Of a stretch of 7,929 nucleotides of DNA, positions 1,121 through 7,389 are shown piece after piece. Each line of letters begins with the position of its first letter. Positions within the stretch are counted from its first letter, which is position 1. The translations under genes and the position numbers were made by a program. The stretch is from a virus. Taxonomy: Duplodnaviria; Heunggongvirae; Uroviricota; Caudoviricetes. The DNA lies in the IMG/VR virus record IMGVR_UViG_2690316273_000016; one strand, given 5' to 3'. Under the pieces are notes generated by a model. It saw only the letters and a list, made by a program, of their open reading frames with translations, searched no databases and was not told the DNA's origin.

Positions 1121-1170
1121 ATACAACGGCGAACAATGTGAAACAACGTGGAACAACCACGAACAAGAGG
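1121..1170. repeat. Array of five tandem 10-bp units, consensus (G/A)AACAA-N4; putative protein-binding sites
   Basis: Read directly: atacaacggc / gaacaatgtg / aaacaacgtg / gaacaaccac / gaacaagagg at exact 10-bp spacing. 1148-1166 matches the reverse complement of 7348-7377 at about 18 of 19 positions. Confidence 0.5.
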
Positions 1171-1449: not shown

Positions 1450-1638
1450 GTGTTAAGCACAGATCGCTTTATACGTGAAAAAGAATGTCAGCAACTTACA
1501 GGCCTGAGCCGCTCATGTCGGTATCGCCTGGAGAAGACCGGACAATTCCCATCACGGCGTAAACTCGGCGGTCGTTCCGTTGGCTGGTCTTTATCCGAAG
1601 TTCTGGCATGGAAGGACAGCCGCGAGGCAGTTCACTAA
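1450..1638 (+). CDS. alpA: AlpA-family phage transcriptional regulator (HTH)
   Basis: 62 codons, GTG start at 1450 four nt after GGGGG (1441-1445), stop TAA 1636-1638. The segment LTGLSRSCRYRLEKTGQFPSRRKLGGRSVGWSLSEVLAW fits the AlpA family pattern (TG-S--Y---G-FP---LG-RSVGW--EV--W). Position directly downstream of a P4-type integrase is typical. Confidence 0.85.
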   Translation: MLSTDRFIREKECQQLTGLSRSCRYRLEKTGQFPSRRKLGGRSVGWSLSEVLAWKDSREAVH

Positions 1639-1884
1639 TCAGGCTGGCGGCGCACCGCCGCCACCCATCCACTAACACAGAGATCTAACCATGAATACTG
1701 GATATACGCCCGAACAGGGGCGGGGCTTCGTTCGTCCTGGTGAAACTAAAAAGCCATGTTATCGGGTATTTTCAGGCATAAAAAAAGCGGCCCCGATAAG
1801 GAACCGCCTTTCTGAACAATTAACCTGCTGCGAAAAAAATGGATCAGTGCAGGGGAATTATATCAACCGTGTGGTGAAGCGCCA

Positions 1885-1922
1885 CTATTGCCGGATAACA
1901 AGCAAAACAAAGGCGACCGCAA
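1885..1922 (-). terminator. Putative intrinsic terminator for leftward transcription
   Basis: Stem GGCGACC (1902-1908) / GGTCGCC (1916-1922), loop gcaaaag. On the minus strand it is followed by TTTGTTTTGCTTG (complement of 1885-1901). No T-tract follows on the plus strand. Confidence 0.4.
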
Positions 1923-1998
1923 AAGGGTCGCCAGTGGGAACAAGGGAAAACAAAAGCATCGCCAACAATGCCACATTTGCGGCTGGTGGGCAATGCAA

Positions 1999-2187
1999 TC
2001 AGTCTGGTTCAGTTCGTTGCCATACCTGCAATGAGCGCTTTTCCCTGTACTCTTTAAGGAATTGCTCAAGGGCAAAAGCACATGGCGCGAATCTTTCTGA
2101 TTCATGCTCTATCTTTCTGCGCCGTCTTTTCCGTGCCGGTGATAATGTTTTGGTCAATTCTTTATCGGTCATTGTGTTGTCCTGCAT
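1999..2187 (-). CDS. Hypothetical small basic protein (57-62 aa), possible second gene of the leftward transcript
   Basis: Minus-strand ORF from the track; translation (…TDKELTKTLSPARKRRRRKIEHESERFAPCAFALEQFLKEYREKR…) looks more protein-like than the overlapping plus frame. Internal ATG at 2172 has an AGGA 7 nt upstream; the first ATG at 2187 has no clear SD. Lies between the upstream regulator gene and the 1885-1922 terminator. Weak support. Confidence 0.3.
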   Translation of the reverse strand: MQDNTMTDKELTKTLSPARKRRRRKIEHESERFAPCAFALEQFLKEYREKRSLQVWQRTEPD

Positions 2188-2438: not shown

Positions 2439-2511
2439 AGTATGCAGGAAAAAAAATAAGTGTTCAACACTTGACGTGTTTAACACCAGAGCTTAAATTG
2501 GTGTTCAACAC
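2439..2511. promoter_or_regulatory. Divergent promoter/operator switch: three palindromic operators GTGTT(C/T)AACAC over back-to-back sigma70-like promoters
   Basis: Operators at 2460-2470 (GTGTTCAACAC), 2476-2486 (GTGTTTAACAC) and 2501-2511 (GTGTTCAACAC, flanked g…c). Rightward promoter: -35 TTGACG 2471-2476, 17-bp spacer, -10 TAAATT 2494-2499. Leftward promoter on the minus strand: -35 TTGAAC (complement of 2462-2467), 17-bp spacer, -10 CATACT (complement of 2439-2444). Operators overlap both -35 elements and the rightward start site. Confidence 0.55.
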
Positions 2512-2608
2512 CTTGCTGATGCAAGGTGCAGAAACGACGAAACCCGGCAGTGCGCTAACACTAACCGGGCTTCTAACCACCAACGATAGAAAGCGTATCG
2601 AGGTAGCT

Positions 2609-2812
2609 ATGAGAAATTATACCAGACACCCGCAAGGGCGGGACTCGTACAACCTGAATAAATACATCTGGCGTTTTATCGCCCTGAGCACGGCACAACC
2701 GCGCGTGATTACCATTGAGGCCACCAGCGAACAGGAAGCGCGTCAGCAATCTCCTGATGGCTGCGTGATGGTATTCGCTGCCCGTATTCGCCAGGGGGAA
2801 CACCATGATTAA
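2609..2812 (+). CDS. Hypothetical small protein (67 aa), first gene of the rightward replication operon
   Basis: ATG at 2609 with GAGG 5-6 nt upstream; stop TAA 2810-2812 overlaps the next start (ATGATTAA). It is the only protein-like part of the 373-aa stop-free frame. An in-frame ATG at 2519 is possible but lacks an SD. Confidence 0.55.
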   Translation: MRNYTRHPQGRDSYNLNKYIWRFIALSTAQPRVITIEATSEQEARQQSPDGCVMVFAARIRQGEHHD

Positions 2813-3433: not shown

Positions 3434-3721
3434 ATGAAAAAGAAAAATTCTGGCTTTACTGCCAGCGGCCCCGCTCGGCCTGAAATCCGCCCCGGCGATA
3501 TTTTCCGGGATAACTATGGCGGCACGGTAACGATAAAAGGCGTGGCAGAACGGCGCATCACTTACCGCCGTGATGGCTACGAATATGACTGCGTGATGCC
3601 TGTTTATCAGTTCCGGCGTGATTTCACGCTGGTGGGCCATCGTAAAGCCGTAAATCAGAAACGTGCAGCAAGTCATATCCGCAAAATTCGTGAAATGCTG
3701 GTCGCAGGGGGTAAAAAATGA
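3434..3721 (+). CDS. Hypothetical basic protein (95 aa)
   Basis: ATG 3434 with GGAG 9 nt upstream; stop TGA 3719-3721 overlaps the primase ATG at 3718 (ATGA). Protein-like composition, basic C-terminus. Confidence 0.6.
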   Translation: MKKKNSGFTASGPARPEIRPGDIFRDNYGGTVTIKGVAERRITYRRDGYEYDCVMPVYQFRRDFTLVGHRKAVNQKRAASHIRKIREMLVAGGKK

Positions 3722-5532
3722 AACTGGCACCGAACGTAAAACAGCAGTCACGCGGCATAAAACACAAAGAAACAGAAGTCATTATTTTTGCGGGTAGTGA
3801 TGCCTGGTCACACGCAAAACAATGGCAGGAACATGACGCGCGTATGGCCGGAGATAATGAGCCTCCTGTGTGGCTTGGGGAGCAGCAGTTATCCGAACTG
3901 GATAAGCTGCAAATTGTGCCGGAAGGCAGAAAATCCGTGCGCATATTCAGGGCCGGATATCTTGCGCCAGTAATGATAAAGGCGATTGGTCAGAAGCTGG
4001 CGGCGGCAGGCGTACAGGATGCAAATTTTTATCCTGAGGGTATGCACGGTCAGGAGGTGCAGAACTGGCGCGGATATCTGGCCCGTGAGCGCCAGAATCT
4101 TTCTGATGGTCTGGTGATTCAGCTTCCTGTTAAGAAAAAAACAGAAGACAGCGCCGCACCACTGGCGCTTAACCAGATGGGAGCAAGCCAGCGCGGCGAA
4201 GTTCTCCTGGCACATTATGGCGGTGAACTGGCGATTCATGCCGACTCTGACACTGTTCACCATTACAACGGCGTTGTATGGGAGCCGATTCAGGATAAAG
4301 AGTTACAGCGTGCTATGGCGCAGATTTTCATTGATGCGGAGATCAGCTATTCGCAGAACGCCATTAAATCGGCGGTCGATACCATGAAGTTAAGTTTGCC
4401 TGTAATGGGGAATACAGCCCGTAACCTGATTGGATTCAGTAACGGGGTATTTGATACCAGAACAGGTAATTTTCGGGAGCATAACAAAAACGACTGGTTG
4501 TTAATTGCCAGTGAATTACCTTTCAGCCCACCAGCAGAGGGGGAAACGCTGGCAACACATGCGCCGAATTTCTGGAAGTGGTTACGCTGCTCGGTGGCAG
4601 AGAATGACCGCAAGACGGATCGCGTGCTGGCTGCATTATTCATGGTGCTGGCGAACCGGTACGACTGGCAGTTATTCATTGAGGTAACAGGTCCAGGGGG
4701 AAGTGGTAAAAGCGTGATGGCGGAGATTTGCACTATGCTGGCGGGTAAGGCCAACACAGTATCGGCAAGCATGAAGGCGCTGGAAGATGCAAGGGAACGC
4801 GCGTTAGTGGTTGGCTTTTCGCTGATTATCATGCCGGATATGACCCGCTACGCTGGTGATGGCGCAGGAATTAAGGCCATTACAGGCGGTGACAAGGTGG
4901 CAATCGACCCGAAGCATAAAGCCCCCTACTCAACACGCATTCAGGCGGTCGTGCTGGCGGTGAACAATAACGCCATGTCATTCAGTGACCGCAGCGGGGG
5001 GATCTCACGTCGTCGGGTGATATTCAATTTTTCGGAGGTTGTACCGGAGAACGAGCGCGACCCCATGCTGGCAGAAAAAATAGAAGGAGAGCTGGCGGTT
5101 GTGATTCGCCATCTGCTTACTCGTTTTTCTGACCAGGACGAAGCTAAACGCCTGCTGTATGAGCAGCAGAAATCAGAAGAAGCTCTGGTGATAAAACGCG
5201 AGGGCGATTCGCTGGTGGACTTCTGTGGCTATCTCATGTCGTCGGTAATGTGTGATGGTCTGTTAGTGGGTAATGCCGAAATTATTCCGTTCAGTCCGCG
5301 CAGGTATCTTTATCACGCCTATCTGGCATATATGAGGGCACACGGATTCGGTAAACCTGTAACACTGACGCGCTTCGGTAAAGATATGCCGGGGGCAATG
5401 GCGGAATATGGCAGGGAGTATATAAAACGGAAAACGAAGCACGGTTTGCGTTCAAATGTGACACTGACAGAGGATTCAGAAGACTGTATGCCATCATGTG
5501 CATCGGTCACAAATGACGACAGCAAAAATTAA
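3718..5532 (+). CDS. P4-family phage/plasmid primase C-terminal domain protein (D5-like SF3 NTPase/helicase); element replication initiator
   Basis: 604-aa ORF. Walker A GPGGSGKS (…FIEVTGPGGSGKSVMAEI…). Flanking blocks (NGVFDTRTGNFREH…, …ITGGDKVAIDPKHKAPYS…, …RRRVIFNFSEVVPENERDPMLAEKI…) match the conserved layout of P4-family primase C-terminal / D5_N-type proteins. SD GGGGG precedes the start. Confidence 0.88.
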   Translation: MKLAPNVKQQSRGIKHKETEVIIFAGSDAWSHAKQWQEHDARMAGDNEPPVWLGEQQLSELDKLQIVPEGRKSVRIFRAGYLAPVMIKAIGQKLAAAGVQDANFYPEGMHGQEVQNWRGYLARERQNLSDGLVIQLPVKKKTEDSAAPLALNQMGASQRGEVLLAHYGGELAIHADSDTVHHYNGVVWEPIQDKELQRAMAQIFIDAEISYSQNAIKSAVDTMKLSLPVMGNTARNLIGFSNGVFDTRTGNFREHNKNDWLLIASELPFSPPAEGETLATHAPNFWKWLRCSVAENDRKTDRVLAALFMVLANRYDWQLFIEVTGPGGSGKSVMAEICTMLAGKANTVSASMKALEDARERALVVGFSLIIMPDMTRYAGDGAGIKAITGGDKVAIDPKHKAPYSTRIQAVVLAVNNNAMSFSDRSGGISRRRVIFNFSEVVPENERDPMLAEKIEGELAVVIRHLLTRFSDQDEAKRLLYEQQKSEEALVIKREGDSLVDFCGYLMSSVMCDGLLVGNAEIIPFSPRRYLYHAYLAYMRAHGFGKPVTLTRFGKDMPGAMAEYGREYIKRKTKHGLRSNVTLTEDSEDCMPSCASVTNDDSKN

Positions 5533-5544
5533 ACTTATGGAATA

Positions 5545-5775
5545 ACTGTTCACCACTGTTCACCCTGTTATAAATATCTTTTATATCAGTACATTATAGG
5601 GTGAACAGTTATTTGTGAACTGTTCACCAAACTATTCACTGTTCACCTTTTTGATTATTTATTGAGCTTTAAGGGTGAACAGTGGTGAACAGTTGGTGAA
5701 TAGTTTTTGTGAAACTGTTCACCCCTTAACATTATGAATAAAAAGGGAAAATCTCAAAAGGTGAACAGGTGAAGG
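5545..5775. repeat. Iteron array in both orientations (CTGTTCACC / GGTGAACAG) with AT-rich spacers; putative replication origin
   Basis: Forward TGTTCACC at 5547-5554, 5557-5564 (two tandem 10-bp ACTGTTCACC units), 5621-5628, 5640-5647, 5716-5723, plus variant CTATTCACT at 5632-5640. Reverse GGTGAACAG at 5600-5608, 5674-5682, 5684-5692, 5760-5768, variant GGTGAATAG at 5695-5703, half-site GTGAAC at 5615-5620. Lies directly 3' of the primase gene. Confidence 0.6.
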
Positions 5776-6523: not shown

Positions 6524-7054
6524 ATGACAACGCTGACCATTAACCGGAAGCCGAAAGGCATTTACGGCACGCCGCAGAAAACGACGCAGGCGGCGCAAGA
6601 GCAGGATAAAACCACATCGGCGCATAAAGTGATACCCGGCAATCAGAACGCACAGCAGAAGCCCACAGGGGCGACACCGTGGCAGCATATGACCAAAAGG
6701 CAGCGCAAAAACCGCCGACGCGTTAACCGCCTCACTGAGATGTGGCCTGACTTATTCAGCCATAAAGCACCGAAGCCGCTTAAGGTGGGGATATTCGACG
6801 ACCTGATGCAGGATATCGCCGTCAGGGGGCTGGCATTCGGGCCGGGGGTATTACGTGCGACGCTGGCATCCTATGCGCAGTCTCCGCGCTATTACCGCGC
6901 CCTGATAGCTGGTGGCGCACGTTACGATCTGAAAGGCCAGCCATGTGGGGAAGTGACACCACAGGAACAGCAGGAGGCAGAAACACGGCTGATGGTGCTG
7001 AATGAGAAGCACAAGCGCCAGCGCCGGGCAGCAAAGGGGGATACATGCCAGTGA
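6524..7054 (+). CDS. FinO/ProQ-domain protein (putative RNA chaperone)
   Basis: 176 aa. Basic, low-complexity N-terminal half, then a block MWPDLFSHKAPKPLKVGIFDDLMQDIAVRGLAFGPGVLRATLASYAQSPRYYRALIAGGARYDLKGQPCGEVTPQEQQEAE that aligns by eye with the F-plasmid FinO core (WWPGLF…GIRDVLLEDVAQR…[40 protein letters not shown]). Stop overlaps the next ATG. Confidence 0.8.
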   Translation: MTTLTINRKPKGIYGTPQKTTQAAQEQDKTTSAHKVIPGNQNAQQKPTGATPWQHMTKRQRKNRRRVNRLTEMWPDLFSHKAPKPLKVGIFDDLMQDIAVRGLAFGPGVLRATLASYAQSPRYYRALIAGGARYDLKGQPCGEVTPQEQQEAETRLMVLNEKHKRQRRAAKGDTCQ

Positions 7055-7329: not shown

Positions 7330-7347
7330 CAGGTTTTGTAAATTATT

Positions 7348-7377
7348 TGTTCGTGGTTGTTCCAGGTTGTTCGGTGA
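7348..7377. repeat. Three tandem 10-bp units TTGTTC-N4 (ttgttcgtgg / ttgttccagg / ttgttcggtg), inverted copy of the 1121-1170 array
   Basis: Read directly; its reverse complement (caccgaacaacctggaacaaccacgaacaa) matches 1148-1166. Sits just upstream of a candidate -35 at 7390. Confidence 0.5.
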
Positions 7378-7389
7378 TTCTGGCTGATG

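Follow-up and report, generated by a model that had tools for sequence, protein, structure and literature searches.

The subject of this study is a 7,929-nucleotide (nt) stretch of viral DNA (IMG/VR record IMGVR_UViG_2690316273_000016; hereafter the window, meaning the stretch at its full length), which is a phage satellite of the Gram-negative phage-inducible chromosomal island (PICI)/P4 type. Its genes run from int and alpA through a leftward repressor operon made up of ylcI and orf62 to icd-like and primase genes. We were concerned with the control region between alpA, encoding an AlpA/Vis-type regulator (1450–1638, plus strand; Pfam Phage_AlpA, E=2.7e-18; annotated as alpA in relatives by the Prokaryotic Genome Annotation Pipeline, PGAP), and the icd-like gene, and above all with positions 1639–2000, which an initial annotation had described as a hairpin-rich, apparently non-coding stretch inside an improbably long stop-free frame. 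This stretch is the decayed "Bro zone" (anti-repressor zone) of the island, and its content is largely ordinary, consisting of a gene stump, terminators for the opposite strand and one candidate small RNA. The best-supported RNA is located outside it, 600 nt to its right, at 2611–2529 on the minus strand.

Downstream of alpA, tblastn identified the stump of an antA/antB (Bro-network) anti-repressor gene at 1691–1738 (plus strand), consisting of the ATG and the first 16 codons. Ten of 11 residues were identical to the intact 266-amino-acid AntA/AntB protein of Escherichia coli strain E148 (locus L003; related loci carry L numbers), and 15 of 16 to a remnant in NCTC86. In L003 the intact gene occupies the interval from alpA to the leftward genes, and so do intact genes in L004 and L005, which encode 192-amino-acid BRO-N proteins. 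In the window, the antA/BRO gene that follows alpA in relatives has been deleted down to its start codon and 16 codons, and the stump would now start the long frame. Comparison with NCTC86 and CFT073, which carry longer, mosaic anti-repressor remnants, places a deletion scar at 1739–1786; relative to these remnants the window is shorter by 63, 7 and 86 bases. Pfam and PHROG searches of 1691–2000 found no intact Bro-N or AntA domain, and NCTC86 retains a Bro-N fragment below threshold (17 bits against a cut-off of 25.6). The RefSeq equivalent of 1691–2228 is a pseudogene lacking its C-terminus, labelled BRO-N in NCTC86. Many other relatives have no such stretch at all, and there alpA and orf62 converge 110 nt apart.

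The leftward operon is encoded on the minus strand. A gene of the ylcI/ynfO family of Arc-like ribbon-helix-helix proteins (2230–2409; NCBIfam NF041551, E=2.1e-16) has relatives in other genera that match the Arc-like repressor family phrog_228, and its product is presumed to be the repressor of the island. The second gene, orf62 (1999–2187, probable start at the ATG at 2172; phrog_21027, E=1.6e-15), encodes a small conserved protein with 36 homologous clusters at 64–98% identity. Three copies of the 11-bp palindrome GTGTTYAACAC (2460–2470, 2476–2486 and 2501–2511; three matches against 0.01 expected) coincide in part with divergent promoters predicted in the ylcI-icd interval, and are presumably operators for the YlcI/Arc-like repressor. 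The predicted internal rightward promoter for icd, TTGACG-17-TAAATT (2471–2499, plus strand), was called by consensus scan only; by eye, a leftward TTGAAC-17-CATACT promoter was seen to overlap the first palindrome.

Downstream of orf62 is a 3' untranslated region (1933–1998, minus strand) with a stable hairpin at about 1996–1956. The fold of 1998–1905 reached −37.2 kcal/mol (z=−5.8), and a terminator scan noted a second, weak terminator-like site at 1972–1955. The scan also called, on the minus strand, the terminator of the ylcI-orf62 operon that we designate T2 (1902–1932), in which a stem formed by 1932–1926 and 1918–1912 is followed by UUUGUUUUGC, the whole reading GGCGACC-N7-GGTCGCC-UUUGUUUU. 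The initial annotation had placed this GGCGACC/GGTCGCC hairpin at 1902–1922; the hairpin is real, but the coordinates were 10 nt off, the arms lying at 1912–1918 and 1926–1932. The T2 stem is 100% paired in seven variants (49 of 49 pair cells standard), with one compensatory change from G-C to C-G in NCTC86-type sequences (GGCCACC/GGUGGCC). A further hairpin, T3 (1780–1807, minus strand), has a stem of 1807–1800 and 1794–1787, a loop at 1799–1795 and a U7 tract at 1786–1780. All eight of its pairs are standard in eight sequence variants, which fall into three sequence types that each keep the eight pairs; two pairs show compensatory changes, and three C/U switches opposite G fit a minus-strand RNA only, since an RNA of the plus strand would have A.C mismatches there. 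A covariance model of T3 together with a conserved core upstream of it (model R2) scored 87.8 bits on the window. From these sequence features, T2 and T3 are both predicted to be intrinsic (Rho-independent) terminators on the minus strand. T2 stands directly 3' of orf62 in L005-L019, and in O157-type islands T3 and its upstream core directly end the orf62 mRNA; because each directly ends orf62-family genes in different islands, the two are probably alternative or tandem terminators.

Two more stem-loops had been reported in the initial annotation. The one at 1645–1663 (plus strand; arms 1645–1652 and 1656–1663) was borne out, including its lack of a T tract: it is GC-rich, begins 7 nt past the alpA stop and forms 8 bp around a CAC loop (−18.5 kcal/mol, z=−4.1). 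It is retained as a 7-bp stem within the same alpA variant group, and other alpA variants have a true terminator, or T2/T3, at its position. This element is likely an alpA mRNA 3' stem-loop or a leaky barrier, with roles as terminator, protein-binding site or mRNA stabiliser being equally possible. The other, at 1759–1799, had to be abandoned. Its octamers (1759–1766 and 1792–1799) are complementary, but their pairing is absent from the minimum-energy fold, the local fold does not surpass shuffled sequences (z=−0.2), and the pairing is not conserved in NCTC86 or CFT073; the arms straddle the deletion scar, which holds the left one, and the right one belongs to the conserved T3 hairpin (1787–1807).

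The long frame, which resembles eta of P4, lies antisense to the leftward operon and also spans the operators. Plus frame 2 opens at 1676, has its first ATG at 1691 and ends at 2812, which gives 373 codons; the other two plus frames have 13 and 18 stops across the same span. The probability of finding no stop was estimated segment by segment, using dinucleotide shuffles for the non-coding parts and, where the frame lies opposite the two antisense genes, resampling of synonymous codons or of codon order. The values were 0.012 for 1676–1998, 0.33 antisense to orf62, 0.63 for the spacer, 0.36 antisense to ylcI and 0.019 for 2410–2608, with a joint probability, as the product over segments, of about 1.7e-5. 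The frame is not a product of chance, and the initial annotation was right to call it improbable.

Nearly all related loci likewise have one plus frame that is almost stop-free from after alpA (or the anti-repressor gene) to the icd start, spanning about 219–536 codons among the loci checked, with 12–39 stops in the other two plus frames. The exception is the E. coli locus L025, in which the frame is interrupted by a cargo gene. The open frame has 536 codons in L003, 501 in L023, where it spans four leftward genes, and 433 in CFT073, where it is still open even though the promoter module is non-homologous to that of the window. None of 22 leftward regulatory genes, from 12 loci and several families, has a stop in the plus frame that shares its third codon positions, whereas an inserted cargo gene has 12 in the corresponding frame. 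All 13 species-representative loci, which represent 11 genera, have 219–418 open codons across the Arc/YlcI-like leftward gene, against a stop density of 0.055 in their other frames; genera with the open frame include Klebsiella, Enterobacter, Pectobacterium, Rahnella and Rosenbergiella. At its far end the frame is either continuous with icd or, in E. coli and Shigella loci where the two are separate, stops no more than about 30 nt from the icd ATG.

Openness on this scale is not accompanied by constraint on the encoded protein. The ratio of non-synonymous to synonymous polymorphism (pN/pS) in the gene-free parts of the long frame was 1.44, 1.01 and 0.81, as compared with 0.27 for icd and 0.11 for alpA, and 1639–2000, earlier described as apparently non-coding, is indeed so at the amino-acid level. 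Frameshifting indels in the frame occur as compensating pairs. Profile searches with the translation of 1691–2608 found no family matches, and across nine long frames only the C-terminal 60–70 residues match any family. The initial annotation had considered most of the translation not protein-like and only its last 67 codons real; both statements hold, the last 67 codons being icd-like and behaving as a conserved protein. Since pN/pS is about 1, indels compensate and only the last 60–70 residues match families, it is openness that is conserved rather than protein sequence, and selection would appear to keep the frame stop-free without conserving its amino acids.

The icd-like (Kil-like) gene (2609–2812, plus strand; NCBIfam phage_ICD_like, E=9.6e-20) is nested as the C-terminal part of this frame. 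Covariation points to an antisense RNA over its ribosome-binding site and start codon (2529–2624, minus strand), comprising an extended −10 element TGGTATAAT at 2624–2616, an RNA of about 2611–2529, a first hairpin at 2608–2575 and a second at 2573–2539, after which the 3' end has a U-rich tail. The promoter element lies within the first codons of icd, and the RNA would begin about 8 nt downstream of it. The element is one of two matches to the TGNTATAAT consensus in the window, where 0.19 are expected, and both matches sit 7–10 nt ahead of a predicted structured RNA. Compensatory changes were found in 7 of the 13 pairs of the second hairpin (23 distinct sequences, nine genera), and the share of its cells that pair is 98.7% when read as minus-strand RNA and 83.9% when read as plus-strand RNA; none of 500 shuffles reached the minus-strand value, and no slid register approached it. 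A covariance model built from these sequences (R1) matched at the icd-start position in 29 of 32 sources, including loci outside its training set, and had no match in P4. The support for this predicted RNA is strong, and much better than that for the candidate at 1851–1780 described below. The best Rfam match was symR (RF01809), at 32.8 bits in the window (sub-threshold, at 2536–2608) and 33.3 in NCTC86; as the gathering score is 61, membership of the SymR family was rejected. A literature search, including one by the RNA sequences, brought up no account of either RNA or of genes arranged antisense in this way. The anti-icd motif occurs twice in L021 (2099–2176 and 2847–2922) and in L023 (2091–2167 and 2838–2913), the inner copy lying in the middle of an enlarged leftward module and, in L021, at a phase change of the long frame, which suggests a tandem duplication of the control module.

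The second TGNTATAAT match is the extended −10 element TGATATAAT (1857–1865, minus strand), the putative promoter of a candidate small RNA of about 70 nt that would lie between T2 and T3, antisense to the long frame (1780–1851, minus strand; 5' end deduced; fold −24.2 kcal/mol, z=−3.6). Upstream of T3, this RNA would contain a conserved single-stranded core, GCGCAGCRGGUUAWYUGUUC (1808–1835, minus strand), which is nearly invariant among the E. coli variants and was recognised by the covariance model of core and T3 in the Pectobacterium locus L040, where the hairpin differs. TGATATAAT is retained in 11 of 13 variants, though the spacer and the first transcribed bases vary. L003 and L035 have another, non-homologous promoter, TTCACT-17-TATAAT, at a similar distance from the same core, and in L033 the promoter-core-T3 unit occurs in another context without T2. 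The T2-T3 spacer was found in 289 genomes. We searched the window for trans targets of the core, and the best duplex (−33 kcal/mol) fell within the range of shuffled cores (−27 to −40 kcal/mol); the core itself occurs only once there. A 5' hairpin of the candidate RNA was also considered and is not claimed, because it is broken in L004 and L032 without compensatory changes. On balance, the odds that 1851–1780 represents an independent small RNA appear a little better than even.

As the initial annotation had stated, the island encodes a FinO/ProQ-type protein (6524–7054, plus strand; PF04352, E=1.2e-23). ProQ/FinO-domain proteins bind the terminator hairpins of antisense and 3'UTR-derived RNAs, and the island protein is for that reason a candidate partner of the two minus-strand RNAs.

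Comparison with P4 provided a precedent for the long frame. An open reading frame of P4 (8168–8812) begins inside the 3' end of vis and has a phage_ICD_like domain at residues 161–208 (E=1.4e-20); this is eta, with kil nested in it. In the window frame the same profile (NF033153) matches residues 325–368 (E=1.5e-18), and phrog_6928, the top phrog match of the P4 eta frame, matches the C-termini of the long frames in seven of the eight relatives with any match. The link with P4 rests on profile matches only, direct BLASTP between the two frames giving a non-significant E=4.6. Because the window frame begins after the alpA/vis homologue and ends in a same-frame Icd-like domain, it is, by its layout and profile matches, the apparent counterpart of P4 eta/kil and a new variant of a known P4 device. 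Starts are placed similarly: the ATG lies 53 nt past the alpA stop in the window, 45 nt inside alpA in L023 and overlapping the ant stop in L003, and the M16 start of P4 eta, from which we take the product to be 199 amino acids long, overlaps the vis stop codon. For P4, nested eta and kil have been linked to translation-dependent escape from immunity termination (Forti et al., 1999, as summarized in PMC10111431).

The two systems share a long frame that runs from the end of the alpA/vis homologue over the immunity or control region (and over an internal early promoter, which in the window is only a predicted one), an Icd-like domain at its end that also occurs as a shorter nested product, and the order of regulator, long frame and replication genes ending in primase. 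They differ in that P4 encodes its CI RNA and the targets of this RNA on the same strand, none of which is present here, whereas the window frame runs antisense through a protein-repressor operon and its terminators, has a cis-antisense RNA over the icd start and lacks protein-level conservation in its N-terminal part. The position of that RNA recalls P1 C4 with icd-ant, and P4 CI, in that it too is placed where it could prevent the Icd/Kil-type first gene of an operon from being translated. C4 and CI share a transcript with their targets, from which they are released by processing, and work through short stretches of complementarity, whereas the icd-start RNA lies on the opposite strand, has its own predicted promoter and matches neither family in sequence or structure. 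SymR/SymE is similar in architecture, with a two-hairpin RNA of about 80 nt, a promoter inside the first codons of the target and coverage of the Shine-Dalgarno sequence and start codon, but the target there is SymE and here an Icd-like gene. The Gram-negative PICI "Bro zone" (Mageeney et al., 2023) and EcCICFT073 (Fillol-Salom et al., 2018) represent the same island type and the same zone from alpA to the replication genes, and EcCICFT073 shares with the window the T2-T3 module, the antisense RNA motif and a 433-codon frame. In the portions of these two papers open to term searches, there was no mention of an antisense YlcI operon in a stop-free frame, of the terminators or of these RNAs.

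From the anatomy of the locus, its homology with P4 eta/kil, the hairpins with their covariation and strand, and a frame found open in locus after locus, we consider it likely that the region is a decayed Bro zone with minus-strand terminators and an eta-like bridging frame that is kept open. The mechanism we infer, with P4 as the model, is one of translation-dependent read-through. During quiescence, the YlcI-like repressor and the antisense RNA over the icd ribosome-binding site would hold icd and the replication genes off. A helper phage would then turn on alpA, and rightward transcription would proceed from the alpA promoter; ribosomes starting at the anti-repressor stump would translate the antisense module and continue past the blocked start of icd; and this translation would shield the transcript from Rho-dependent polarity and from the antisense RNAs, so that the replication operon could be expressed. 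The stop-free frame is probably kept so that ribosomes can cross the control region.

Several observations weigh against this proposal. Translation from the ATG at 1691 would depend on a weak Shine-Dalgarno match (−2.9 kcal/mol), and this start is separated from alpA by 53 nt that include the stable hairpin at 1645–1663. Where the BRO gene is intact, the open frame lacks a good start codon and sets in about 136 nt past the stop codon of BRO, and the alpA variants of L004 and L005 are followed by a canonical terminator, which argues against simple read-through there. In the Pectobacterium loci L040, L041 and L048 the long frame passes through icd in another phase, for about 370 nt more. A consensus promoter scan requiring both hexamers made no call for the small-RNA promoter, which has no −35 element. 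Finally, the loci within E. coli are related to one another and their counts are not independent.

Alternative explanations differ widely in how well they fit these data. The initial annotation had raised the possibility of a structured immunity RNA of the P4 kind, but it is very improbable that the hairpins of 1639–2000 form a plus-strand RNA like P4 CI or P1 C4. That the stretch is hairpin-rich is correct, and the plus strand does fold better than shuffled sequences (−119 kcal/mol, z=−3.0); P4-type satellites use RNA immunity, and C4/isrK-type RNAs are present in the corresponding zone of some Gram-negative PICIs. However, the minus strand folds more stably (−133 kcal/mol, z=−4.1), the 1759–1799 hairpin fails on both significance and conservation, the U tracts and G.U pairs of T2 and T3 fit the minus strand only, and the stretch is missing from the many relatives in which alpA and orf62 are close neighbours. 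An Rfam scan of the window and 10 relatives at E<=1 returned nothing in 1639–2000, and neither C4 (RF01695) nor isrK (RF01394) was matched anywhere in the window at that limit, though the same library found CI (74.9 bits) and seqA (60.8 bits) in P4. What survives of the earlier suggestion is that RNA elements matter in this locus. We also regard as highly unlikely that the long frame is a functionless chance product or "shadow" opposite real genes. Antisense frames that share third codon positions have fewer stops, with a probability of 0.14–0.36 of having none per 60-codon gene, and PGAP treats parts of the frame as a pseudogene. Such shadowing does not account for the open non-coding parts (P=0.012 and 0.019), the recurrence of openness across non-homologous modules and 11 genera, the closed frame opposite a cargo gene inserted on the same strand, indels that compensate one another, or the homologous and experimentally studied long frame of P4.

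That the frame encodes a real, fast-evolving Eta-like protein with an Icd-like C-terminus, and that this protein is itself under selection, is unlikely, albeit more credible than the two preceding explanations. Eta of P4 belongs to the Bro network and matches regulator families in its middle part, PGAP calls long forms "Icd-like protein", and openness is predicted by this model as well as by a bridging frame. The values of pN/pS near 1 in the unique parts, the compensated frameshifts that swap stretches of sequence, the want of any family or domain match outside the last 60–70 residues of nine long frames, a composition equal to that of an antisense translation and the lack of fusion to icd in several islands speak against it. 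A more serious contender, to which we would assign roughly one chance in three, concerns the candidate small RNA alone: T3 may be a mere back-up terminator for T2 read-through, with no separate RNA and with TGATATAAT conserved only through the youth of the sequence. Nine aligned T2-T3 sequences indeed average 81% column identity, and the consensus scan, the 5' hairpin lacking compensatory changes and the search for trans targets in the window are all in keeping with this explanation. Against it stand the rarity of TGNTATAAT matches in 7.9 kb and their placement ahead of predicted structured RNAs, the unit without T2 in L033, the near-consensus promoter of another sequence that L003 and L035 have equally far from this core, and the retention of the single-stranded core as far as Pectobacterium while the hairpin differs.

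A bridging frame kept open for its translatability would supply a concrete layout for the AlpA-dependent switch in EcCICFT073, made up of an Arc-like repressor operon, two minus-strand terminators, an eta-like open frame, and one strongly supported and one candidate antisense RNA. It would further indicate that a frame can be conserved for translatability rather than for the product that it encodes. More tentatively, and with confidence that falls short of even, we propose that AlpA-type satellites across the Enterobacterales may use a translation-and-antisense switch, in which a sequence-unconstrained ribosome bridge of more than 300 codons would run antisense through the repressor operon, the icd start would be blocked by a previously undescribed cis-antisense RNA, and the second small RNA (1851–1780) would possibly oppose. 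If true, this would be a protein-repressor-plus-antisense variant of P4 RNA immunity, and a case in which the openness of a frame, and not its product, is what selection favours. The layout also explains a recurrent annotation artefact. In the RefSeq relatives L001, L020, L024, L025, L029 and L030, PGAP labels the long frame as an "Icd-like protein" of 135–540 amino acids, as a hypothetical protein of 247 amino acids or as a "missing C-terminus" pseudogene; these labels, inconsistent between genomes, all stem from one stop-free frame.

With regard to distribution, E. coli chromosomes contain near-identical copies. Of 5426 complete genomes, 1562 match part of 1400–2650, and 245 match at least 80% of it; the model island EcCICFT073 contains the same module as the window. 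A search of species-representative genomes with orf62 found no relatives, and the loci described above were collected by other routes. In a phage collection there was no DNA match to 1770–1940 and the Icd protein matched only one record, in a BLAST search that missed P4.

The remaining genes of the window are on the plus strand and comprise a truncated integrase (1–1074), small open reading frames, a DUF4222 gene, a D5/P4-type primase (3718–5532), and a gene for single-stranded DNA-binding protein (SSB) adjoining the ProQ/FinO-domain gene. One further plus-strand gene resembled a capsid gene by eye and had no match in Pfam. The Rfam int-alpA RNA motif (RF02996) is undetectable in the int-alpA spacer of the window; in E. 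coli E148 it occurs above threshold between int and alpA (1099–1166 of L003, 45.5 bits). Clusters of GAACAA/TTGTTC repeats, e.g., GGAACAACCACGAACAA, are present upstream of alpA (1125–1170, plus strand) and, inverted, after the last small gene (7335–7380), and may be binding sites for AlpA or for the integrase arm domain; a similar run adjoins the small-RNA unit in L033. PICIs have an iteron-type replication origin downstream of pri. At 5560–5760, 3' of the primase gene, a dense array of GTGAACAG/CTGTTCACC repeats, which also gave spurious microRNA-family matches in Rfam, looks like an origin of this type.

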